This document shows positions 3 to 12,073 of a stretch of DNA of 64,000 bases, in pieces. Made by a program: the position numbers and the translations under genes. How positions within the stretch are numbered: position 1 is the stretch's first letter; each line of letters starts with the position of its first letter. The stretch comes from Pedobacter sp. (GTDB taxonomy: Bacteria > Desulfobacterota > Desulfuromonadia > Desulfuromonadales > Syntrophotaleaceae): the NCBI GenBank assembly GCA_050253415.1, contig JBFWJC010000002.1, forward strand, positions 741,567 through 805,566, in the 5' to 3' direction. The notes below the pieces were generated by a model. It worked only from the letters and a program-made list of their open reading frames with translations, was not told the origin of the DNA and made no database searches.

Positions 3-719
3 TGGCAGGCACCCTGCGAGTTGCAGACTCCTTCGGTGTCGCAAGGTGTCGGGGTTCTTTCCGACGCTCCGATTCTGCTTCAGGTGCGGGATCTGACTTT
101 TATGGGGTATGGGGATAAGCCGGTTTGGGATGGCGTTTCCTTTGACATCAGGCGCGGGCAGTGTGTCGTTATAACGGGCATGAACGGAACGGGAAAGACC
201 ACTCTTTTGCGAGTGCTTGCCGGGTTTCTCAAGCCGGGAAGCGGCAATATCCGGATCTTCAATGCCGAACCGGATCCCCGTTTGTTGCGTCGCAGGCTGG
301 GGTGCCTGTTTCAGAATCCCCATAAACAGATTTTTGAAAACACCGTGCGCGAGGAGATTGCCTTTCCCTTGAAACGATTCGGTTGGCCTTCGGAAGAACG
401 TACCGCCCGTATCGAAGAGACCCTACGTCTGTGCGGTATTGAAAATCTCATCGACGATTCGCCGCATAAACTCAGTTACGGTCAAAAACACCTGGTGGCT
501 ATTGCTTCGGTATTGGCACCTGCTCCGGAGATGCTTTTAATGGATGATCCCTTTGCCGGTCTTGACGGTGCGCGCCAGCGGGATGTGATGAGGGTTCTGG
601 CCGACTGGAACAGGGAACAGGGAGTCACCTTGGTGATGACGTCGCACGACCCCGATCAAATTCCGGTCTTGGCCGACGGTCATTTGCATATCGAAGGGGG
701 CCACATTGGCTGGCAATAG
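3..719 (+). CDS. ECF-type transporter ATPase (EcfA/CbiO family), 5'-truncated by the window edge
   Basis: Walker A GMNGTGKT, Q-loop LFQNP..QIF, signature LSYGQK, Walker B LLMDDP, H-loop SHD. The frame is open from base 3, so the true start is probably upstream (possibly the second domain of a duplicated ATPase). Confidence 0.85.
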   Translation, partial: WQAPCELQTPSVSQGVGVLSDAPILLQVRDLTFMGYGDKPVWDGVSFDIRRGQCVVITGMNGTGKTTLLRVLAGFLKPGSGNIRIFNAEPDPRLLRRRLGCLFQNPHKQIFENTVREEIAFPLKRFGWPSEERTARIEETLRLCGIENLIDDSPHKLSYGQKHLVAIASVLAPAPEMLLMDDPFAGLDGARQRDVMRVLADWNREQGVTLVMTSHDPDQIPVLADGHLHIEGGHIGWQ

Positions 720-1407
720 TTTTTTGCGTATGCACGGGGCGTTGGCCCATGGCCAGCGTCGAGACGACGGCCCCGAAAAGTCCGACAGGGGGCTGCCCTT
801 GCCGGTGGGTGTCAAGATGCTGCTGGCGTTAACCCTTTCCTGTGGGGCTTTTGTGGCCCGTACCGGAACATTTCTCGGGGGACTTACCGCCGTCAATGCG
901 CTGGTCTTTTTGCTGCTCCGCCCACAGGGCCTGTCCTGGTGGCGGCAAGGGAGATATTTTCTGGTTCAATCCTCCACCGTCATGGTGCTTTATATTATTC
1001 GGTTCCGATCTCTGTCAGGAGTATGGGACGGACTCTTGATTTCCTGGCAGCTTTTTCTGGCCTTTTGGCCGACCATGGTTTTCGCCAAAACCACTTCGCA
1101 AACGAAGATTGTGCGTGCCATGAATCGCGTCATACCGAGCCGTATGTCGTTCGTGCTGGCCACCTGTCTTAAATTCGCGCCGCACTTGCTGGAAGAAGTG
1201 CGGGACATTTACGAAGGGCAGGTATTGCGCGGTGCCAGGATCCTGCCTAAAGATCTGGTAAAACCGTCGAATTGGCCCGACCTTATGCATTGTGTTGTAG
1301 TGCCGGCCGTTGTGCAGGGGATGGCTCTGGCCAGCAATATTGCTCTGGCGGCGCGTGCACGCGATTTTGGACTGTACCGCAGGCGTACCTGTTGGCCTGG
1401 GGAATAA
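706..1407 (+). CDS. ecfT: ECF transporter transmembrane component T (EcfT/CbiQ family)
   Basis: Multi-TM protein with coupling-helix motifs Q.LRG and ALAARARDF; TTG start after AAGGGGG; overlaps the ATPase gene. Confidence 0.75.
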   Translation: MAGNSFLRMHGALAHGQRRDDGPEKSDRGLPLPVGVKMLLALTLSCGAFVARTGTFLGGLTAVNALVFLLLRPQGLSWWRQGRYFLVQSSTVMVLYIIRFRSLSGVWDGLLISWQLFLAFWPTMVFAKTTSQTKIVRAMNRVIPSRMSFVLATCLKFAPHLLEEVRDIYEGQVLRGARILPKDLVKPSNWPDLMHCVVVPAVVQGMALASNIALAARARDFGLYRRRTCWPGE

Positions 1408-1435: not shown

Positions 1436-1990
1436 ATGGTCAAGTCGTTTGTGGCGCGTTTTTCAGACAGTTTTCGCTTGCCTCTCAAGGATGCCTTGTT
1501 TCTTGGTTTTTGCGCTGTGTTTGCGGTGCTGGTGCGGGTTGTCCTGCGACTGCATCTGAGCATCTCCGGGCACGCCATGATTATCAAGATTTTCTTTTTG
1601 ATGTTGGGCAGGGCGAGCACTCCCTGTCGCTACGGTGCCAGTTTTACGGCGCTGCTGGCTGGGACGGCAGCCATGTTTCTCGGGTTTGCCAAGGCTGGTC
1701 CATTTATAGTCGTCAAATACCTGATGGCGGGTGTGATTATTGACCTTTCGGCCTATTTCCTGCCGGTACTGTTTAGCAGCTATGTCTTGTGTGCCCTGGT
1801 GGCGGCAGTGGCATCGTCCACCAAGTTCGCTACCGCCTACGCAGTTAATGCCATGGTTGGTATGGATCCGGTGGTAAATATGCAGCGATCCCTTCTGGAA
1901 GCGACGGGTGCAGTGATTTTTGGCGTCATCGGTGGTTTGCTGGTGCCGATGGTTGTGCGACGTCTCAAGGCTTACGGCGTTATTCGATAG
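1436..1990 (+). CDS. Putative ECF substrate-specific (S) component
   Basis: About 184 aa with 5-6 hydrophobic helices, directly after ecfA-ecfT. Start moved to ATG 1436 behind AAGGAG (1421-1426). Confidence 0.65.
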   Translation: MVKSFVARFSDSFRLPLKDALFLGFCAVFAVLVRVVLRLHLSISGHAMIIKIFFLMLGRASTPCRYGASFTALLAGTAAMFLGFAKAGPFIVVKYLMAGVIIDLSAYFLPVLFSSYVLCALVAAVASSTKFATAYAVNAMVGMDPVVNMQRSLLEATGAVIFGVIGGLLVPMVVRRLKAYGVIR

Positions 1991-2030: not shown

Positions 2031-2774
2031 ATGATGAAAATTCTTGTATGTATCGACGACACGGATAATCTCGAATCACGCGGCACCGGTGATCTGGCGA
2101 CGGAACTCGCCGAAGAACTCGAAAATCGTGGTTGGGGGCGCAGTAGCTTTGTGACCCGTCATCAATTGCTGGTGCACCCCGATGTGCCTTACACGTCGCA
2201 CAATAGCTCCATGTGTTTTGAGGCGGAGATCGATCCTGCTTATCTGGAGTCGCTGATTTCCTACGCCGGAGAGTATCTGGAGAGAGAAAGTGCCACCGGT
2301 TCCGATCCTGGCCTGTGTGTTACTGTCTTGGAACGCCTGGCGGAACCGCAAGCGATGGTAGATTTCGGGCGCAGTGCCAAAGAAACGGTGCTTAACAAAA
2401 AAATGGCCTATGACCTGGCAGAGAAGTTAGGTGTGCACCTTTCCGAGCATGGCGGTACCGGGCAGGGCGTGGTCGGTGCATTGGCCGGTATCGGCCTGAG
2501 GATGAGTGGCAAGGACGGGCGCATGAAAGGCTGGTTGAAAATCAGCACCGATAACGGGCTGGCCCGGGTAGGCGATATCTTGGATGAGGTAGATCTGCGG
2601 GGTGTTCGCACCATGGCCGGCGAGGTGCTTGGCCACGAAGAAATCGTAGCCGTTGATGACAAACCGAAAGCGGTCATGGTCGATGGTGGCACTTATTTGA
2701 TGGTGTCGCCGGTGGATAATGGTGACGGGGTACGCTGGCGCACCACTCCGCGGCAGCAACTCAAGCGGTTTTGA
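2031..2774 (+). CDS. TiaS-like protein (N-terminal catalytic region of the agmatidine synthetase family only); function unknown
   Basis: Motifs IDDTD, PYTSHNS, SDPG and GQGVVGALA parallel TiaS GIDDTD, PYKTRGN, NPG and GRGxIGALA. At 247 aa it has no OB or Zn-ribbon region. Confidence 0.65.
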   Translation: MMKILVCIDDTDNLESRGTGDLATELAEELENRGWGRSSFVTRHQLLVHPDVPYTSHNSSMCFEAEIDPAYLESLISYAGEYLERESATGSDPGLCVTVLERLAEPQAMVDFGRSAKETVLNKKMAYDLAEKLGVHLSEHGGTGQGVVGALAGIGLRMSGKDGRMKGWLKISTDNGLARVGDILDEVDLRGVRTMAGEVLGHEEIVAVDDKPKAVMVDGGTYLMVSPVDNGDGVRWRTTPRQQLKRF

Positions 2775-2784
2775 GGAGGACGCC

Positions 2785-2988
2785 ATGTGGCATAGCAATA
2801 AACACGGAGAACGCGAATTCCGCCATGGCCAGGAAGCCTATAGCCTTGCCGCGGATCAAGCCGGGGCTTGCCATCACTTTTGCCCCGACGTGGAGGAGGA
2901 ATGGGCTACCGATGACGAGCGTTCCTGCTACAACTGCCGGCTAAGACGCTGGACAGTTGCCTCATTCCTTTGCATGCGGCCAGCCTGA
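2785..2988 (+). CDS. Small Cys-rich hypothetical protein (67 aa)
   Basis: ATG 2785 behind a strong GAGGAGG RBS; C-x3-C...CYNC-RLRRW...C motif; fills the operon gap. Confidence 0.7.
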   Translation: MWHSNKHGEREFRHGQEAYSLAADQAGACHHFCPDVEEEWATDDERSCYNCRLRRWTVASFLCMRPA

Positions 2989-3017: not shown

Positions 3018-3833
3018 ATGTACACAAGACTGCTGATGGCTGTAATAGTTATGCTGCTGGGCGCCGGGTGGTCGGCGGCGGAGGATTGGGTTCAGGAAAG
3101 TCCGGGACAAAAAGCATACTACGACGCAGATGGCAACTTGGTACGGGTGCTGCTCGACACGGATGGCGACAAAAGGTTCGAAACCGAAGAACTTTACGGG
3201 GGGCGGCGTCTTTCCCGGCGCGAAGATCGGGACGGAGACGGCGTCTGGGAGCGCCAGTTCTCCTGGCAGAAGGATGGTTCGGCCATCCTGGTGGAGGACC
3301 GGGGTAAAGGGGCCAGGCAGACAACCTGGTTCGATTCCCGGGGTACCATGATTAAGGTGGAAAAAGATAAGGATCGCGACGGATGCCCTGAAACCACCTG
3401 GCATTATGAAAGGGGAGTGTTGCGGGAGGTTGTCAAAGCCCGTGGTACCTGGTTTTATAAGGATGGCCAGATGATTCATGCCGAAATCGATACAGATCGT
3501 GATGGCCGGATCGATCGTAAGGAATATTATAGGCAGGGTCATCTGGATCGCGCAGAGGAGATGAATGCTTCCGGCAAGGTCCGCTGCGTGTGGACCTTTG
3601 ATACAAGCGGCAGGCCGTTGCGGGCTGAAGAGGATGCCAACGGCGACGGGCGCAGGGAGACCACCCGCGTTTATCAAAAGGATGGCTCCCAGAGCATGAC
3701 CGTGGATGCTGATGGAAACGGTACACCCGAACTTCGAGAACATTATTCGGCAAAAGGGCGGATGATCAGTCGCGAAGAAGATCTGGACGGCGACGGTGTA
3801 TTTGATTTGCGCACCGGACGCGTTAAGGAGTAA
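3018..3833 (+). CDS. Secreted/periplasmic repeat protein with multiple DxDxDG (Ca-binding-like) loops
   Basis: Signal peptide MYTRLLMAVIVMLLGAGWSAA; DTDGDK, DRDGDG, DKDRDG, DTDRDG, DANGDG, DADGNG, DLDGDG; AGGGGG RBS before ATG 3018. Confidence 0.75.
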   Translation: MYTRLLMAVIVMLLGAGWSAAEDWVQESPGQKAYYDADGNLVRVLLDTDGDKRFETEELYGGRRLSRREDRDGDGVWERQFSWQKDGSAILVEDRGKGARQTTWFDSRGTMIKVEKDKDRDGCPETTWHYERGVLREVVKARGTWFYKDGQMIHAEIDTDRDGRIDRKEYYRQGHLDRAEEMNASGKVRCVWTFDTSGRPLRAEEDANGDGRRETTRVYQKDGSQSMTVDADGNGTPELREHYSAKGRMISREEDLDGDGVFDLRTGRVKE

Positions 3834-3838
3834 GGAAC

Positions 3839-4543
3839 ATGCAGAGCTGGGTTGCTTTTATGGAAAAAGCCGGTCCCATCGGGATCACTATTCTTTTCTG
3901 TTCGGTGATCGCACTGTTTATCATCATCGAACGGGTCCTGGCCTACCGGTCGCTCCGGTTGAAAGACCCGCGCCTGTTTCATCGTTTGCGCAAACGGGCG
4001 CAAGAAGGTCAGTTTTCCGAGGCCGCCACCATGGTCAGGGATGAGCGCCATCCCTGGGCGGTGGCCATGACAGAGGTTCTGGCACGCCTTGACAGTAAGA
4101 CCCGCGCTACCGGTCGCACCGAGCTGGAAAAAACCTTCGCCCATGCCGCGACGCGCGAAGTGCGCAAGATGGAACGCTTTCTCCCCACCCTGTATCTTAT
4201 CGCCAGTATCTCGCCGTTGCTCGGTCTGCTTGGCACGGTGGCGGGCATGATCAAGGCTTTTCAGGCCATTGAAAACCTCGGCGGTAAAGTCGATTCATCG
4301 GTGCTGGCGGGGGGGATATGGGAAGCGATGTTGACCACTGCTCTTGGCCTCGGGGTGGCTATCCCGGCCATGGTGGCGCATAACTACCTGCAAGGTAAAG
4401 TGCATGCCATGGTGGCCGATATGAAGGAAGAAACCGGAGTTTTTCTCGACGCCCTCGAAGATACCGGGCAGCTCGGAGTCAACAAGGATAAAGGTCTGGC
4501 TTCGGTTCATTCCGTGCCCGGTGCTGGCAGGGAGGCTCGATAA
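3839..4543 (+). CDS. exbB: ExbB/TolQ/MotA family proton channel
   Basis: SPLLGLLGTVAGMIKAF and AGGIWEAMLTTALGLGVAIPA motifs. Confidence 0.9.
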   Translation: MQSWVAFMEKAGPIGITILFCSVIALFIIIERVLAYRSLRLKDPRLFHRLRKRAQEGQFSEAATMVRDERHPWAVAMTEVLARLDSKTRATGRTELEKTFAHAATREVRKMERFLPTLYLIASISPLLGLLGTVAGMIKAFQAIENLGGKVDSSVLAGGIWEAMLTTALGLGVAIPAMVAHNYLQGKVHAMVADMKEETGVFLDALEDTGQLGVNKDKGLASVHSVPGAGREAR

Positions 4544-4944
4544 TGGATATCCCGGTTCGCTCCCAGACGACGGGGTTGAACCTGACCCCTCTTATCGATA
4601 TCGTATTCCTGCTGCTGGTTTTTTTTCTGCTTACCACGCAATTTATAGAGGAAGACGGCATCGGTGTGCGGCTGCCGGCGGCCACCGCCAGCACTACCCG
4701 CGAGAAGGACGAGATTGCGGTGGCCATCACGCGTGATGGGAAGTTGTTTGTCGCAGGTCAGCCACTGCCGTTATCCGACCTCGAGCAGAAGCTGCGCAGC
4801 CTGCTCGGGGCTGACACAACGGTTGTTATCCGCGGAGACCGGGATGTCCCTTTGCAGACAGCGGTTTCTGTCATGGAGCGATCCAAGAAAGCTGGGGCAG
4901 TGCGTATTGTCGTTGCAACGCTTGAAGAAGCAGGCTCGCCGTGA
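4543..4944 (+). CDS. exbD: ExbD/TolR family protein
   Basis: LNLTPLIDIVFLLLVFF motif; IRGDRDVP; 1-nt overlap with exbB. Confidence 0.9.
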   Translation: MDIPVRSQTTGLNLTPLIDIVFLLLVFFLLTTQFIEEDGIGVRLPAATASTTREKDEIAVAITRDGKLFVAGQPLPLSDLEQKLRSLLGADTTVVIRGDRDVPLQTAVSVMERSKKAGAVRIVVATLEEAGSP

Positions 4945-5681
4945 AGACCTCTCGCACATGGATGGCCCTGGGCACATCTCTCACTATACATATAGGCCTG
5001 GTGCTGGTCCTCGGTATGGGATTGATGCAACCCCATCGGGTGGTCAATCGCATAGAGGTCAATCTCGAGGGGGCCGCAGTACCCAGCAGGCCGCCGGGAG
5101 TGCAAGCTCCGTCGCCCGTTGCCGGTCCGGAAATGCCTAACTCCGCATCCCTGCCGACGTCGACGTCGGTCGCTCCGCATCTGTCTTTGAAGGCACCTTC
5201 TGTCGTTGCACCGGCTCCGGCCAATTTCGATGATGATGGAGCGCTTCCGCCGCCGGTTGCCGGAGGGGTGCCTGGGCCCATCGGTGTACCTCTGCATGCC
5301 GTGAGTGGGGGCGGCATGGACGGGGCGGGTTCGGGTAGCGGTCCCGGTGTAGCCGGAGGTGGGCAAGGTCGGCAGGGAGCAGGACCTTCATCCGCATTGG
5401 CCGGCTATCTCAATGCCATAAGGGCCCGCGTGGATGCCGCTAAGCGTTACCCTCAGATGGCCCAGCAGCGTCGCCTGGAAGGAGTTGTTGTCGTAACCTT
5501 CCGGTTGACCTTCGATGGTCGATTAATGGGTGAGCCTCTGGTCACCAGGAGCTCAGGTTCAAAGCAGCTCGATAGGGCCGCGTTGCTGGCGGTGCGACGT
5601 GGTGCTCCTTATCCTTCCTTTCCATTGAATCCGAAGGATATGAAAGCGCTCGAAATTCCGGTGAAGTTTTTCCTGCGCTGA
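4941..5681 (+). CDS. tonB: TonB family energy transducer
   Basis: N-terminal TM with SxxxH (SLTIH), Pro/Gly-rich linker, C-terminal YP..A....EG.V.V.F...SSG...LD.AA domain. Confidence 0.85.
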   Translation: MKTSRTWMALGTSLTIHIGLVLVLGMGLMQPHRVVNRIEVNLEGAAVPSRPPGVQAPSPVAGPEMPNSASLPTSTSVAPHLSLKAPSVVAPAPANFDDDGALPPPVAGGVPGPIGVPLHAVSGGGMDGAGSGSGPGVAGGGQGRQGAGPSSALAGYLNAIRARVDAAKRYPQMAQQRRLEGVVVVTFRLTFDGRLMGEPLVTRSSGSKQLDRAALLAVRRGAPYPSFPLNPKDMKALEIPVKFFLR

Positions 5682-5834: not shown

Positions 5835-7079
5835 ATGGGAAAGCATGCAGCATCCACTCTGGTGGGGATGGACGAAAATGTGCAGTTACCGGTAGAGAGT
5901 CTGCCGGCGCAGCACTGGGATGTGATTATTGTCGGAGCAGGACCGGCGGGCTGTGTTGCGGCCATAGAACTGGCCGGGATGGGGCACCGCGTATTGCTGG
6001 CCGACCGGGATTGGTTTCCGCGCGATAAAGTTTGCGGTGACGGACTTACCCCGGGTGCCATCCGGATTCTGCGGCGTTTGGGGCTTTATGATACGGTAAG
6101 AAAAGTTGGACGACACTGCTCGGAGATGAGTGTCTTCAGTCCGGCACATGTTCGTATCGATGTGCCGGGAGACTATATAACCGTAAGGCGCAAAATTCTT
6201 GATCAGCTAATGGTTCGCAAGGCACTTGCTGCCGGGGTGACTTTTGTTCGGGGCACGGCCGATATTCTGGAATCGCAAGCTGATAGCAAAGCAAACGTGC
6301 ACTTTGGTGAAGGTCAGGCGGTGCACACCGCAGAATGTTGTCTGTTGGCGACCGGAGGACGGCTGGCTCTGGCGCAAAGAGCGGGCCTGGTGACGCATCC
6401 AGTTGCCAGCGGAGCAGCGGTTCGTTGTTATATTCGCTCACGTATATCTCTTGATCGACTGGTCGTTGCCTGCGAACGCAATATTCTGCCTGGTTACGCC
6501 TGGATCTTTCCTGTCGACAAGGATCTGTTCAATGTTGGCTGTGGTCGCTTCATGTACGGCCGCAACGAAAAGCATGTCAGCCTTCGAAAAGTCTTTGCGG
6601 CTTTTGTCGACGAATTTCCTCTGGCCCGGGAACTTTTGAGCCAGGGCGCAATCGAAACGCCTTTGAAAGGCGGTGTTCTTCGCAGTGGCTGGCAGCAGGC
6701 GGGACCAATGGCCCGCGGGCCTTTTTTAGGCATGGGGGAAATGGTCGGTACAACCTCGCCTTACACCGGTGAAGGTATAGGCAAGGCCATGCAAAGTGGT
6801 GTTCTGTCAGCCAGGCTTGTGCATCGGTGTCTTCTTAAAGGGGAGATGTCCGCATTGCGGCGTTACCCGGAATATCTTCAACAGCTTGGGGGGTTGCATT
6901 ACGAAGGGTTCAAGCGTACCCGTCGTTGGTTTTTGCAGCCCTGGTTGGTCGACTTTTTTGCTCGTCGCATAAACAGAAGTCCCTACCTGTACGAAACTTT
7001 CAAAGGTATTCTCCAGGAAAAAAACGACCCCGCGCAGGTCTTCTCCTGCCGCGGGGTTTGGCGTTCTCTTTGGCACTGA
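5835..7079 (+). CDS. Geranylgeranyl reductase family FAD-dependent oxidoreductase
   Basis: DVIIVGAGPAG, FPRDKVCGDGL, GYAWIFP, SPYTGEGI motifs; start uncertain. Confidence 0.85.
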   Translation: MGKHAASTLVGMDENVQLPVESLPAQHWDVIIVGAGPAGCVAAIELAGMGHRVLLADRDWFPRDKVCGDGLTPGAIRILRRLGLYDTVRKVGRHCSEMSVFSPAHVRIDVPGDYITVRRKILDQLMVRKALAAGVTFVRGTADILESQADSKANVHFGEGQAVHTAECCLLATGGRLALAQRAGLVTHPVASGAAVRCYIRSRISLDRLVVACERNILPGYAWIFPVDKDLFNVGCGRFMYGRNEKHVSLRKVFAAFVDEFPLARELLSQGAIETPLKGGVLRSGWQQAGPMARGPFLGMGEMVGTTSPYTGEGIGKAMQSGVLSARLVHRCLLKGEMSALRRYPEYLQQLGGLHYEGFKRTRRWFLQPWLVDFFARRINRSPYLYETFKGILQEKNDPAQVFSCRGVWRSLWH

Positions 7080-7114: not shown

Positions 7115-8245
7115 TCAGTGAAGAGAATTTCCCTGATTCAATGAACGTATCTGGGCTTCCGTGTAGTCGTCAAACCAGTATGCTTGCGGATTACGTTTGA
7201 ACGCCAGGAGTTCATCGAGTCTCTGTCTGGAGTCTGCCGGGCGGTGATAGCGGAAAAAAATCTGATCCTTTGTCAGGCCTGCAACCTCAATTTTACCGGT
7301 AACATGAGACATGGCGTACCGACTGCGGCGAGCGAGCCCGGAGCAGGCTTTGAGGGCCTCGGCAAAAACTCCATAGCCTTTTTCGATGGGGACGGTGTAG
7401 GCGGCATTGCCTTCAGTGGGGCGGCATTGGAAAACATAGTAGGGCGCAATGCCGAGATATGACAATTCGTTGAGCAACTTCGATAAAACTCTGGGGTTAT
7501 CATTGACGCCTTGGATCATGGGCGTCTGATGCATGATACTCACTCCGCATTTTTGTATCTGGTCCAGTGCGCGCCGTGCTTCGGGTGTCAGTTCCCTGGG
7601 GTGATTGAACTGCGCCATAAGGTAGATCCGTCGATCAGACAAACTATGGGTTTTGAACATCTGCAGAAGTTCCGGATCATCCAGAATGCGAAAAGGATTA
7701 AAGGCAAGCATTTTGGTGCCTATGCGAATGATCCGCACGTGATCGATAGCGCGCAACTGCTCGATTATTTCCGTCAGTTTGTGCGTTGAAAGGAGCAGAG
7801 GATCCCCTCCTGTAACAAGCACATTATTGATTTCAGGGTGTTTGCGAATGTATTCCAACCCACCGGAAACATCCCTTGCCACTTCCTGATTGTCCTCCAT
7901 AAAAAGGCGCTTGCGAAAACAGAACCTGCATAAAGCTCCGCAGACATCGCTCACCAGCAGTACCGCCGTGTCGGCATATTTGTGCTCAAGTCCCGGAGCT
8001 TTGGCATAATGAGATTCGCCGGATGCGTCAAGAGCCCCCCAGGGTTCAAGCTCGTCCGTACTGGGAATAACAATGCGGCGAATAGGATCCTTTGGGTCAT
8101 CCCAGTCGATGAGTGATTGGTAGTACCCGTTAGTCCGGAAAGCATAGCGTTCTTCGACAACGCGCAGATTCTGACGCTGCTTATCGCTCAATGCTTCCAG
8201 TTCAGGAATCTGATCAATGCTTGTGATGTACTTCCTGTAGCTCAT
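7115..8245 (-). CDS. KamA-family radical SAM enzyme (aminomutase-like)
   Basis: GLEHKY, CGALCRFCFRKR (CxxxCxxC), TGGDPL, FNHPREL, GVNDN, PYYVFQC; AAGGAGGA RBS. Confidence 0.85.
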   Translation of the reverse strand: MSYRKYITSIDQIPELEALSDKQRQNLRVVEERYAFRTNGYYQSLIDWDDPKDPIRRIVIPSTDELEPWGALDASGESHYAKAPGLEHKYADTAVLLVSDVCGALCRFCFRKRLFMEDNQEVARDVSGGLEYIRKHPEINNVLVTGGDPLLLSTHKLTEIIEQLRAIDHVRIIRIGTKMLAFNPFRILDDPELLQMFKTHSLSDRRIYLMAQFNHPRELTPEARRALDQIQKCGVSIMHQTPMIQGVNDNPRVLSKLLNELSYLGIAPYYVFQCRPTEGNAAYTVPIEKGYGVFAEALKACSGLARRSRYAMSHVTGKIEVAGLTKDQIFFRYHRPADSRQRLDELLAFKRNPQAYWFDDYTEAQIRSLNQGNSLH

Positions 8246-10513: not shown

Positions 10514-12073
10514 TTAATCCCAGGAATCGATTTTCATGGTGCCGTGGGTGGCAAGGTTTTGCTGCATGCGGAATACCCGGTCCAGCAGGTGCGGTTCGTG
10601 GCCGACTCCGCGGGAGAGGCAGTCTTGGCTGGCGCGGTCGAAATAATCTTGCAGCAGAGGGCGATAATCCGGATGAGCGCACTTGTCGATGATCAGTTGT
10701 GCGCGATCGCGGGGGCACAACCCCCTCAAGTCGGCCAAGCCCTGTTCGGTGACCAGGACGTCGAGGTCGTGCTCCGTATGGTCGACATGGGGGACCATCG
10801 GTACTACACAGGTGATGCCGGTGGGGTCGGTTTTGGTGGGGCGGACCGATGGGGAGTGCATGATCGACAAAAAGGCGTTGCGCAGAAAGTCGCCGGAGCC
10901 GCCGATGCCGTTGATCATACGCGTGCCCCCTACCAGGGTTGAGTTAGCATGTGCATACATGTCGAATTCCACCGGGGTGTTCATGGCGATTACGCCGAGG
11001 CGTCGGATCATCTCGGGGTTGTTGGCCAGTTGCTGCGGGCGCAACACGATCTTGCGCGTGTATTCGTCCCATTTGTTGTAAAACCGTTCAAAGCCATTGG
11101 CAGAGAAAGACAGGGACGTGGCTGAGGCATAATCCAGCTTTCCCGAGTCGAAAAAGTCGAGCATAGTATCTTGCAACACTTCGGTATAAACCGTCAGATT
11201 GCTGAAAGGACCTTTGACCAGGTCACCGACCACGGCATTGGCAATATTGCCGACCCCCGATTGCAAAGGCAACAAGTTAGCCGGAAGTCGTCCAGCCTTG
11301 ACCTCGGCCTGGAAGAAATCGAGAATATGATCGGCAATTTTCTGGGAGATGGCATCTGTTGCTCCCAGCGAGCGGCCTTTGTCAGGTTCCCGTGATTCGA
11401 CGATGGCGATGATCTTTGACGTGTCGCAGGGTACATAGGTGGTGCCGATGCGGTCGCCGACCCGGCTGATCAGGTAGGGCTGGCGATGGGGTGGCATTTC
11501 CGGAAGCACGATATCATGCAGGCCCTCGTAGGAGGGGATGGAGGTGTTCAGCTCGATGATAAGATGCTCAGCGGTTTGGATAATCTCAGGAGCGATGCCT
11601 ACAGATCCGGCCAGGATAATGTGGCCCTCCTCGGTAATGGCACTTGCTTCAATGATGCCGAGATCCAGTTTGCCCCCGAGGTCCTTGGTATAAAATCCGT
11701 AACCCAGATCCTGGGCGAACATGGAAAGGTGCTTGTCGTGCATGCGAATGCGACCGGAGTTGATCCCCTTCTGGATATTCTTGCCGCTCTGGTAAGGCCA
11801 GCGCCTGGCTATCATATCGAGGGAAGCCCAGCGGTCTTCCGTTTCGGTTCCGACGGAAGCGCCGATGAGCAGGTTGAAGCGCATCTTACCCTGAAGATTG
11901 TATTTTTCCACATAATCAGCCAGTGCTTTGGGAATGGCTTTGGGGTATCCGACGGGGGTGAATCCGGACCAGCCCAGGTTCATACCGTCTTTGAAGTGGG
12001 GAAGAACATCTTCAACGGACCGGATACGGTCCAATAGTTGTGGGCAGGCTATGCGGTCATGCAGGGTAGACAT
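10514..12073 (-). CDS. ato: Succinyl-CoA:acetate CoA-transferase (acetyl-CoA hydrolase/transferase family)
   Basis: SGFTPVGYPK, LQSGVGNIANAV, YTEVLQD, INGIGGSGDF, VTEQGLADLRG; ATG 12073 behind GAGGAG. Confidence 0.88.
   Translation of the reverse strand: MSTLHDRIACPQLLDRIRSVEDVLPHFKDGMNLGWSGFTPVGYPKAIPKALADYVEKYNLQGKMRFNLLIGASVGTETEDRWASLDMIARRWPYQSGKNIQKGINSGRIRMHDKHLSMFAQDLGYGFYTKDLGGKLDLGIIEASAITEEGHIILAGSVGIAPEIIQTAEHLIIELNTSIPSYEGLHDIVLPEMPPHRQPYLISRVGDRIGTTYVPCDTSKIIAIVESREPDKGRSLGATDAISQKIADHILDFFQAEVKAGRLPANLLPLQSGVGNIANAVVGDLVKGPFSNLTVYTEVLQDTMLDFFDSGKLDYASATSLSFSANGFERFYNKWDEYTRKIVLRPQQLANNPEMIRRLGVIAMNTPVEFDMYAHANSTLVGGTRMINGIGGSGDFLRNAFLSIMHSPSVRPTKTDPTGITCVVPMVPHVDHTEHDLDVLVTEQGLADLRGLCPRDRAQLIIDKCAHPDYRPLLQDYFDRASQDCLSRGVGHEPHLLDRVFRMQQNLATHGTMKIDSWD

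Follow-up and report, generated by a model that had tools for sequence, protein, structure and literature searches.

A bacterial protein with a TiaS-type catalytic domain and a four-cysteine partner, encoded beside importers and a candidate for a role in tungsten or molybdenum supply

Archaeal TiaS, the 2-agmatinylcytidine synthetase for tRNA(Ile2), cleaves ATP to AMP and pyrophosphate (PPi), phosphorylates O2 of C34 in its tRNA, and autophosphorylates Thr18. It is represented in the PDB by entries 3AMT, 3AMU, 3AU7, 4RVZ, 5XOB, and 3U02. Here, we describe a bacterial relative of its catalytic domain, encoded in a stretch of 64,000 nucleotides from Pedobacter sp. (contig JBFWJC010000002.1, positions 741,567 to 805,566) which we call the window. 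The protein has 247 amino acids (aa) and is referred to below as TCKD-like, after the Pfam family TiaS_TCKD. Its gene lies in an operon with an importer and is followed by a 67-aa open reading frame (ORF) with four conserved cysteines. We conclude that the protein is probably an enzyme with a job other than tRNA modification, and that it works with the cysteine protein in the supply of tungsten or molybdenum (W/Mo).

Several other described systems serve as points of comparison. Methanogenesis marker protein 11 (TIGR03280, function unknown) is another non-TiaS protein which bears a TCKD-type domain. Its N-terminal part of ~130 residues is missing from the window protein, which instead has a C-terminal domain of its own. 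Group I energy-coupling factor (ECF) transporters, such as CbiMNQO and BioMNY, have dedicated A, T, and S genes. Our operon likewise encodes a fused A/A' ATPase and a T component of the CbiQ type, and it has a small membrane protein with a relation to S components of the PF09819 type. This putative S component belongs to no curated family, and the operon is bounded by a TonB-dependent receptor on one side and ExbB, ExbD, and TonB on the other.

MolBC-A of Haemophilus influenzae (HI1470/71/72) is a type II ATP-binding cassette (ABC) importer whose binding protein takes molybdate and tungstate, and we know of no TCKD-like or four-cysteine companion to it. The same set of FecCD permease, ABC ATPase, and Peripla_BP_2 genes precedes the TCKD-like gene in most of its Firmicutes-type relatives, whereas the window operon has a TonB receptor and an importer of the ECF type in their place. 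In cofactor assembly, MogA/MoaB carry out molybdopterin adenylylation and MoeA inserts the metal. The TCKD-like protein would have in common with them an ATP-using step in Mo/W cofactor supply and a shared riboswitch regulon, with MoeA encoded close by in one related locus (L074; L numbers label related loci, 80 of which were compared). It differs in that no sequence or fold relation was seen, and in that it is tied to uptake genes rather than to the moa/moe core.

Catalytic domain, C-terminal domain, and cysteine partner

An AlphaFold2 model of the protein built from a 60-sequence alignment reached a mean predicted local distance difference test score (pLDDT) of 95.4. When it was compared with 48,161 representative solved chains using VIA-align, TiaS 3amt_A came first at Z 22.7 (root-mean-square deviation, rmsd, 1.9 Å over 154 residues, 25% identity), followed by TiaS from P. 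furiosus at Z 15.5, with all remaining chains at 7.9 or below. The top Foldseek match was 3amu_A (E 2e-11, rmsd 2.1 Å over 158 columns). In the VIA-align comparisons, the TiaS chains align to residues 1-223 of the window protein at most. Residues 1-158 have the TCKD fold of TiaS, and TiaS is the only strong structural match, as the initial annotation had anticipated when it called the protein a TiaS-like catalytic domain.

Sequence searches also show similarity to TiaS. A phmmer search of the PDB aligned residues 2-158 with residues 1-153 of the TiaS chains 3au7, 3amt, and 4rvz (A. fulgidus) at E 0.004-0.006. The NCBIfam model for TiaS, NF040849, matched at E 1.3e-6 over model positions 1-154 only (27.3 bits, with a cut-off of 600). 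The best NCBIfam match was marker protein 11 at E 2.2e-14 (53.3 bits, with a cut-off of 255.8), in which residues 1-157 align to positions 132-283 of 292, that is, to the C-terminal half of the model only. Elsewhere in the family, a paralogue in L042 scores 29.4 bits against Pfam PF22641 (TiaS_TCKD), and some relatives carry a precomputed PF22641.3 assignment. The family is at the edge of the PF22641 model, yet the fold match is unambiguous.

The protein and TiaS share an I-DDTD start and the motifs R-x3-L, P-Y, (N/D)PG, and G-x-G-(L/V)-(I/V)-GALA. In the window protein, the corresponding segments are IDDTD (residues 8-12), RHQL (43-46), PYTSHNS (53-59), SDPG (91-94), and GQGVVGALA (144-152). 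We aligned 60 relatives with 31-83% identity to the window protein and found D9, H44, N58, G146, G149, and L156 to be invariant. Conserved in 90% or more of the sequences are D10, T11, D12, G18, T19, G20, R43, Q45, L46, Y54, T55, S56, H57, S59, G94, K117, A150-A152, D162, and G163. The translation and this alignment both bear out the initial claim of a 247-aa ORF containing all five motifs. Judged by the alignment, these motifs are more than chance resemblances: the family is large, and each motif falls on columns that vary little or not at all. Pairwise alignment with TiaS puts T19 opposite Thr18, the autophosphorylation site. The KTRGNG loop of TiaS is replaced by an equally conserved TSHNSS.

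The architecture, by contrast, differs from that of TiaS. The window protein is 247 aa long as opposed to about 420, lacks the ferredoxin-like, OB, and zinc-ribbon domains with which TiaS holds tRNA(Ile2), and ends in an 88-residue domain of its own. The initial description of a stand-alone domain without tRNA-binding modules therefore stands, but the protein consists of two conserved domains and is more than a bare catalytic domain. G163, G167, G197, K213, and W236 are invariant among 46 sequences of the C-terminal domain (domain-alignment positions 4, 8, 38, 54, and 77), and the domain modeled alone (residues 160-247) reached a pLDDT of 84.2. Searches of solved structures with this model gave chance-level matches, at best Z 2.6 to ubiquitin-like chains in VIA-align and E 0.32 in Foldseek. 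For this reason, we considered and did not adopt an OB, TOBE, or beta-grasp label. What is new is the architecture around a known catalytic fold, along with the partner and the biological setting.

TiaS supports the decoding of AUA in organisms that lack TilS. The window protein is bacterial and coexists with TilS, which in this genome is a bona fide 458-aa protein. It passes both curated domain models (TIGR02432, 184.9 bits with a cut-off of 93.6; TIGR02433, 48.1 bits with a cut-off of 20.2), as was to be checked from the initial annotation. Since TilS is present, a role of the TCKD-like protein in tRNA-Ile2 modification is unlikely. Taken together, the stand-alone domain, the presence of TilS, and the transporter operon make a non-tRNA, probably ATP-using role the sensible reading.

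The four-cysteine ORF provides the second component. It immediately follows the TCKD-like gene in 47 of the 80 loci and lies just upstream in 2 (tblastn, E ≤1e-5); another 2 loci offer no room for it, and in 29 none was detected at that threshold. Among 48 sequences, C29, D35, E39, C48, C51, R54, and C63 are invariant. No Pfam or NCBIfam family matches the protein, and the best E value in a profile search of the PDB was 1. A complex prediction for enzyme and partner gave a score of 0.79, compared with 0.00 for the best of three controls, a verdict which supports binding. Of 157 solved complexes, 116 came up to that mark, as did 2 of 215 mismatched pairs; these counts apply only roughly here because our own alignments were used. 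Contacts agreed by at least 95% between prediction runs, and the partner was modeled at a pLDDT of 87 or more. Because no solved relative of the partner was found, the score is unlikely to be the memory of a known complex.

On the enzyme side, the predicted interface involves R43, Y54, H57-S59, and residues 17-18 and 20-21, which flank T19. On the partner side, it involves an acidic stretch (36-43) and the RRW region (52-58). The model thus supports docking of the partner on the conserved face of the enzyme. In one locus (L024, 10748-11884), the four-cysteine ORF continues in frame into an ORF that starts like a twin-arginine signal peptide; this continuous frame may be an assembly error or a read-through artefact of ORF extension.

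Genomic setting of the family

A word-indexed search returned at least 6011 proteins at E ≤0.001 among 8000 candidates. An exhaustive search of 50%-identity cluster representatives gave 821 matches at E ≤0.001, including 174 at E ≤1e-30, and most of these representatives are ~247 aa long with both domains covered. Among the matches listed, the closest named relative is Pcar_2393 of Syntrophotalea carbinolica (83% identity). With one genome taken per species, relatives are encoded in at least 601 stretches; among the hosts are Geobacteraceae, Desulfuromonadales, Syntrophomonadaceae, Desulfotomaculaceae, Sporomusa, Neobacillus, Leptospirales, Kiritimatiellales, and Chloroflexota. As these sequence counts indicate, the family is large, mostly bacterial, and no oddity. 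Its distribution within the phylum is patchy (22 of 301 sampled genomes), and it is absent from all 9 genomes that were sampled from the same order or class. Three tandem TCKD-like paralogues follow the binding-protein gene in L042 (8453-10765), and also in L059 and L061 (Syntrophomonadaceae).

According to a 2026 survey (PMC13397572), the TiaS superfamily is restricted to archaea that are extremophiles. The counts in bacteria contradict that statement. We found no literature on a bacterial stand-alone TCKD family or its link to tungsten, although the gene may be listed under "unknown function" in Figure S4 or the gene tables of Regulski 2008. Passages of PMC10102598 mention no such gene.

Importer genes accompany the family in two main arrangements. 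ECF-type A/A'-T-S genes adjoin the TCKD-like gene in 11 of the 80 loci (tblastn). They lie upstream together with a TonB receptor, as in the window, in seven loci (L007, L011, L012, L033, L035, L069, and L076) and downstream of the gene in four (L025, L034, L043, and L053); L024 has A/A' and T genes only. In 30 of the 80 loci, a single-domain ABC ATPase is encoded 1.9-2.2 kb upstream (tblastn). Pfam annotation of seven of those 30 (L015, L058, L016, L048, L050, L062, and L082) yielded the order FecCD permease, ABC ATPase, Peripla_BP_2, TCKD-like gene, and an eighth locus, L042, repeats this order with two additional paralogues in between. In each of these eight loci but L082, the FecCD permease comes after a Big_5 surface protein. 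The binding protein of L031 matches H. influenzae HI_1472 (3psa), the molybdate/tungstate-binding MolA, at E 1.6e-27, second to 4ovk at E 2.5e-28. Judged by gene order, the family serves two unrelated importer types.

Many relatives of the gene, unlike TiaS, are under riboswitches for the molybdenum or tungsten cofactor (Moco/Tuco). An Rfam scan found 10 copies of this element (RF01055) in 7 of 14 related loci. These 10 copies served to build a covariance model of our own, which was applied at E ≤0.1 to the window, the 80 loci, and L004, the DNA that includes the upstream part of the operon. It gave 60 matches in 34 of the 80 loci, 59 of them 116-123 nt long; the model is slightly more permissive than the Rfam scan, as it found a match in L078 where the scan gave none. 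This amounts to 60 copies in ~1.2 Mb of related loci, compared with 4 in this entire 4.1-Mb genome. In 14 loci, mostly of Geobacteraceae and one of Desulfotomaculaceae, the match lies at most 700 nt directly upstream of the TCKD-like gene on the same strand. In 11 further loci, a same-strand match 0.7-6.5 kb upstream heads the importer operon, bringing the total to 25 of 80.

A second copy of the riboswitch stands directly before the ECF-type A/A'-T-S genes in L034, L043, and L053 (Geomonas/Geobacteraceae). Both riboswitches of L034, the one locus aligned to the Rfam model, are without the P3 hairpin (model positions 59-74 deleted), as in the variant proposed to be a sensor of tungsten cofactor. 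According to Regulski 2008 (PMC2408646), RNAs without P3 correlate with tungsten-cofactor genes. A quick tree with weak deep branches places the window protein in a Desulfuromonadales/Geobacteraceae group which interleaves riboswitch-controlled and receptor/ECF-linked genes, for example L029 next to L035. Further Moco/Tuco copies, some in tandem, lie just 3' of the gene and lead the next operon in L031 (10883-10999), L034 (11042-11161), and L062 (11176-11756).

The neighboring genes, which we annotated by running Pfam on 146 ORFs from 16 loci, often belong to Mo/W metabolism. L016 encodes MoaA and MoaC as well as a TupA-like PBP_like_2 protein, whose permease and ATPase are also present; L026 encodes MoaE, two PBP_like_2 proteins, Porin_O_P, and an amino-acid-kinase-family protein; and L014 encodes MobB, an amino-acid-kinase-family protein, and CbiQ. 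MoeA and MoaC are found in L074, a molybdopterin oxidoreductase and XdhC in L042, and a ThiF/MoeB-like protein in L005. In L082, FmdE (PF02663, E 3.2e-38; 10738-11385) stands immediately after the TCKD-like gene, ahead of a second Peripla_BP_2/FecCD/ABC set. Together with the similarity to marker protein 11, this FmdE gene hints at a link to Mo/W enzymes of the formylmethanofuran-dehydrogenase type. The amino-acid-kinase-family proteins (PF00696) of L014 (7006-7836) and L026 (8329-9132) are encoded just upstream of riboswitch and gene. The ATP-dependent molybdenum storage protein belongs to the same family.

The organism itself shows signs of tungsten use. Its genome contains six matches to the aldehyde ferredoxin oxidoreductase (AOR) family, and AOR genes follow each of the four RF01055 copies. 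At one of these sites (G000:C1:721300-727500, L092), a riboswitch and AOR are accompanied by a 74-aa MoaD-like ORF ending in GGG, a BtuB-like TonB-dependent receptor, and TonB. We did not count this receptor as evidence for tungsten uptake, since it is closest to BtuB models (387 bits, below the cut-off).

The operon in this genome

The window begins inside the operon, the upstream part of which is contained in L004. The order of genes is TonB-dependent receptor, A/A' ATPase, T component, S component, TCKD-like gene, four-cysteine ORF, repeat protein, ExbB, ExbD, and TonB, and the coordinates are given in Table 1. The TCKD-like gene has a Shine-Dalgarno sequence, GGGAG, 6-10 nt 5' of its ATG. 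The transporter context claimed in the initial annotation is confirmed by the A/A' ATPase, the CbiQ-type T component, and the putative S component immediately 5' of the gene.

Table 1. Features of the operon; positions refer to the window unless L004 is named
Feature	Position	Strand	Basis or remark
TonB-dependent receptor, 641 aa, opens the operon	L004 9167-11092, upstream of the window		Plug and beta-barrel domains
Fused double ABC ATPase (ECF A/A' type), 456 aa, 3' half in the window	3..719 (L004 11349-12719)	+	
ECF T component (CbiQ-like)	706..1407	+	PF02361 CbiQ, 34.6 bits (cut-off 25)
Putative ECF S component, 184-aa membrane protein, undescribed specificity class	1436..1990	+	
TCKD-like gene	2031..2774	+	ATG start, ORF of 247 aa
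TCKD-type domain, residues 1-158, bears DDTD	2031..2504	+	PDB sequence match, AlphaFold2 model, Foldseek, VIA-align, conservation
C-terminal conserved domain, residues 160-247, unrecognised fold, with stop codon	2508..2774	+	
67-aa four-cysteine ORF	2785..2988	+	GAGGAGG Shine-Dalgarno 5 nt before ATG
Secreted repeat protein, DxDGDG-type repeats, membership in the system doubtful	3019..3833	+	Signal-peptide-like N-terminus from ATG 3019
ExbB	3839..4543	+	PF01618, 109.5 bits
ExbD	4543..4944	+	PF02472, 106.6 bits
TonB	4941..5681	+	PF03544, 56 bits

The A/A' ATPase matches Pfam ABC_tran in two stretches (171.7 bits) and the NCBIfam model ECF_ATPase_2 at E 1.4e-48, below the cut-off. In 11 related loci, the TCKD-like gene occurs together with an orthologue of the T component (33-50% identity). 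The 184-aa membrane protein has no Pfam or NCBIfam match. Its assignment as an S component is suggested by 29% identity (BLASTP, E 2e-17) to a Sporomusa ovata ORF matching PF09819 ABC_cobalt and, at a score of 0.96, by the Atlas cluster "putative ECF transporter S component," the nearest that has a name. Its start at 1436 is our choice, made to avoid overlap with the T component. TonB energises the TonB-dependent receptor at the start of the operon. The repeat protein has only a weak EF-hand_5 match, and tblastn found no counterpart in the 80 related loci.

Some genes around the operon deserve mention. LarC (PF01969, 461.8 bits), a LarB-like AIRC protein, and an AAA_26/DRTGG protein are encoded on the minus strand, 0.3-3.5 kb upstream of the receptor gene (L004 5669-8870). 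LarB/LarC, genes of the nickel-pincer cofactor, could when found beside an ECF-type transporter push annotation wrongly towards nickel. On the other side, 3' of TonB, lie a geranylgeranyl-reductase-like FAD protein (5835-7079, plus strand) and a radical SAM protein (7115-8245, minus strand), for which tblastn showed no link to the operon in the 80 related loci. Between 8000 and 9500 of the window, G+C content drops from ~0.55 to 0.42.

Proposed role and competing explanations

Based on the fold, the importers, and the Mo/W genes and riboswitches beside its relatives, we favor, as the probable explanation, that the TCKD-like enzyme acts together with the cysteine protein in W/Mo supply. For the copy in the window, this reading rests on orthology, on the shared transporter genes, and on the AOR genes and riboswitches of the organism. 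What we infer beyond these observations concerns ATP turnover, the type of cleavage, the substrate, the metal, the role of the cysteines, and the hand-off. In the scheme we propose, the metal would pass from the TonB-dependent receptor through the ECF-type importer (A/A', T, and the novel S component), with ExbB, ExbD, and TonB supplying energy. The enzyme would bind ATP-Mg at its DDTD site and act as a complex with the 67-aa four-cysteine protein, at the cytoplasmic end of this route for tungsten or possibly molybdenum. ATP would be spent, as AMP and PPi by analogy with TiaS, on activating or releasing the imported tungsten species, and the metal would then pass to the thiolates of the partner and on to metal insertion into molybdopterin by MoeA.

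This specific chemistry of activation and hand-off is a tentative proposal in which we place much less trust than in the general role. A still bolder version, which we regard as somewhat more doubtful again, is that the TCKD-like enzyme activates tungstate itself, using ATP to make a reactive tungsten intermediate which is loaded onto the four cysteines of the partner.

A number of observations weigh against the preferred reading. The Pfam model PF22641 scores 25.3 bits, below its gathering cut-off of 27, and covers residues 6-62 only, and with TSHNSS in place of KTRGNG the chemistry may differ from that of TiaS. At the window operon, no riboswitch was found, either by Rfam at its gathering threshold on L004 or by our own model on the window and L004; with filters off, the best match was 7.6 bits at E 1.1. 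The seven related loci of the same receptor/ECF layout gave none either, and 46 of the 80 loci are without a match, some of them with little upstream sequence. The link of this copy to Mo/W therefore rests on orthology and on the shared transporter genes. The preference for tungsten over molybdenum depends on the correlation with P3-less RNAs, for which the riboswitches of one locus were aligned. Co-occurrence with AOR had to be dropped as evidence: all 22 carriers of the gene have AOR, but so do 246 of the 301 sampled genomes, which makes it non-discriminating.

The organism's other transporters also count on this side. The genome encodes two WtpA-type and four ModA-type binding proteins, so there is no obvious need for another plain oxyanion importer, and the TonB receptor suggests a bulkier or scarcer substrate. 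This operon would therefore provide an additional route, perhaps serving a form of the metal that is scarcer or bound in another way. Finally, LarB and LarC lie nearby on the opposite strand, and parts of the transporter match families with "cobalt" in their names.

These transport considerations bear on what the cargo might be. One alternative, which we hold to be rather unlikely, is that the importers carry tungsten or molybdenum on an organic chelator (metallophore) or as a thio-anion, and that the enzyme phosphorylates or otherwise modifies the carrier inside the cytoplasm to free the metal. There is a parallel in the esterases and reductases which free iron from siderophores. The six classical oxyanion-binding proteins already in the genome fit this idea. 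So do the TonB receptor with ExbBD-TonB in diderms and the Big_5/SLH surface proteins in monoderm loci, both of which point to a scarce or bulky ligand, and the fact that FecCD/Peripla_BP_2 importers usually carry chelates. It has to contend, however, with a binding protein whose closest named solved relative is the oxyanion-binding HI_1472 and with the lack of chelator biosynthesis genes among the annotated neighbors in the 16 loci, and it leaves no role for the conserved four-cysteine partner. The partner is equally unexplained if the system serves pterin salvage, with the enzyme phosphorylating or adenylylating an imported pterin such as cyclic pyranopterin monophosphate, molybdopterin, or a breakdown product. 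Vitamins and precursors of cofactors are the typical cargo of ECF transporters, vitamin kinases trap substrates after ECF-type uptake, and TiaS acts on a pyrimidine ring. A riboswitch that senses the finished cofactor would repress salvage too. The enzyme also resembles the pterin pyrophosphokinase HPPK (1cbk_B at Z 6.7 and 3mcm_A at Z 6.5 in VIA-align; Foldseek E 0.004-0.009), although these scores are within the noise (Z <8) and provide a lead only. As the MolA-like binding protein and the TupA-like neighbors point to a metal instead, we consider salvage improbable.

Other explanations dispense with cargo chemistry or with W/Mo altogether. The protein could be a regulatory or gating subunit, an ATP- or metal-sensing part of the importer with the cysteine protein as the sensor. 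It is always encoded with importers, and its core weakly resembles ferredoxin folds of the PII/ACT type. Yet it is the first gene after the riboswitch in 14 loci, 4 of which (L010, L014, L021, and L026) have no adjacent importer in tblastn; it serves two unrelated importer architectures; and the catalytic DDTD of TiaS is invariant or nearly so. We see little probability in a purely regulatory role on these grounds. Even less can be said for a nickel/cobalt ECF system that would supply the neighboring LarB and LarC, with the TCKD-like enzyme acting in that pathway. The LarC gene and the LarB-like AIRC gene, 2-5 kb upstream on the opposite strand, invite this reading, as does the "CbiQ" family match of the T component. 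Pfam annotation of the operon region, though, found no S component of the CbiM/NikM type, LarB and LarC have no tblastn match within 6 kb of the gene in the 80 related loci, and the relatives accompany Mo/W genes and riboswitches. Least credible of all is modification of tRNA or another RNA in the manner of TiaS, with the cysteine protein replacing the TiaS zinc ribbon. The catalytic fold and DDTD are held in common, a threonine aligns with Thr18, and a four-cysteine protein might well be a zinc ribbon. Standing against this are the presence of TilS, the missing OB and ferredoxin-like domains, a profile search with the partner that finds no TiaS chain, and a context of transport and Mo/W metabolism throughout. 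That the gene is carried by only 22 of the 301 genomes sampled in the phylum is also unlike a core translation function.

If W/Mo supply is indeed the role of the TCKD-like enzyme and its partner, the family would represent a conserved module of two proteins that uses ATP and stands between metal uptake and cofactor assembly. The catalytic fold of TiaS is common in anaerobic bacteria and would have a job unrelated to RNA there. Two candidate routes for W/Mo uptake would also emerge, one through a TonB receptor and an ECF-type importer and the other through a surface Big_5 protein and a MolA-like importer. How cells acquire trace tungsten and separate it from molybdenum en route to the pterin cofactor is an open question, and tungsten-specific maturation is addressed by two papers from 2026. 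Should the tungstate-activating version hold, the partner would be a dedicated tungsten chaperone upstream of MoeA, and the reaction would be a hitherto undescribed step of tungsten cofactor biosynthesis and a point at which cells distinguish tungsten from molybdenum. Tungsten enzymes such as AOR and formate dehydrogenase (FDH) matter for syntrophy, CO2 reduction, and biocatalysis.

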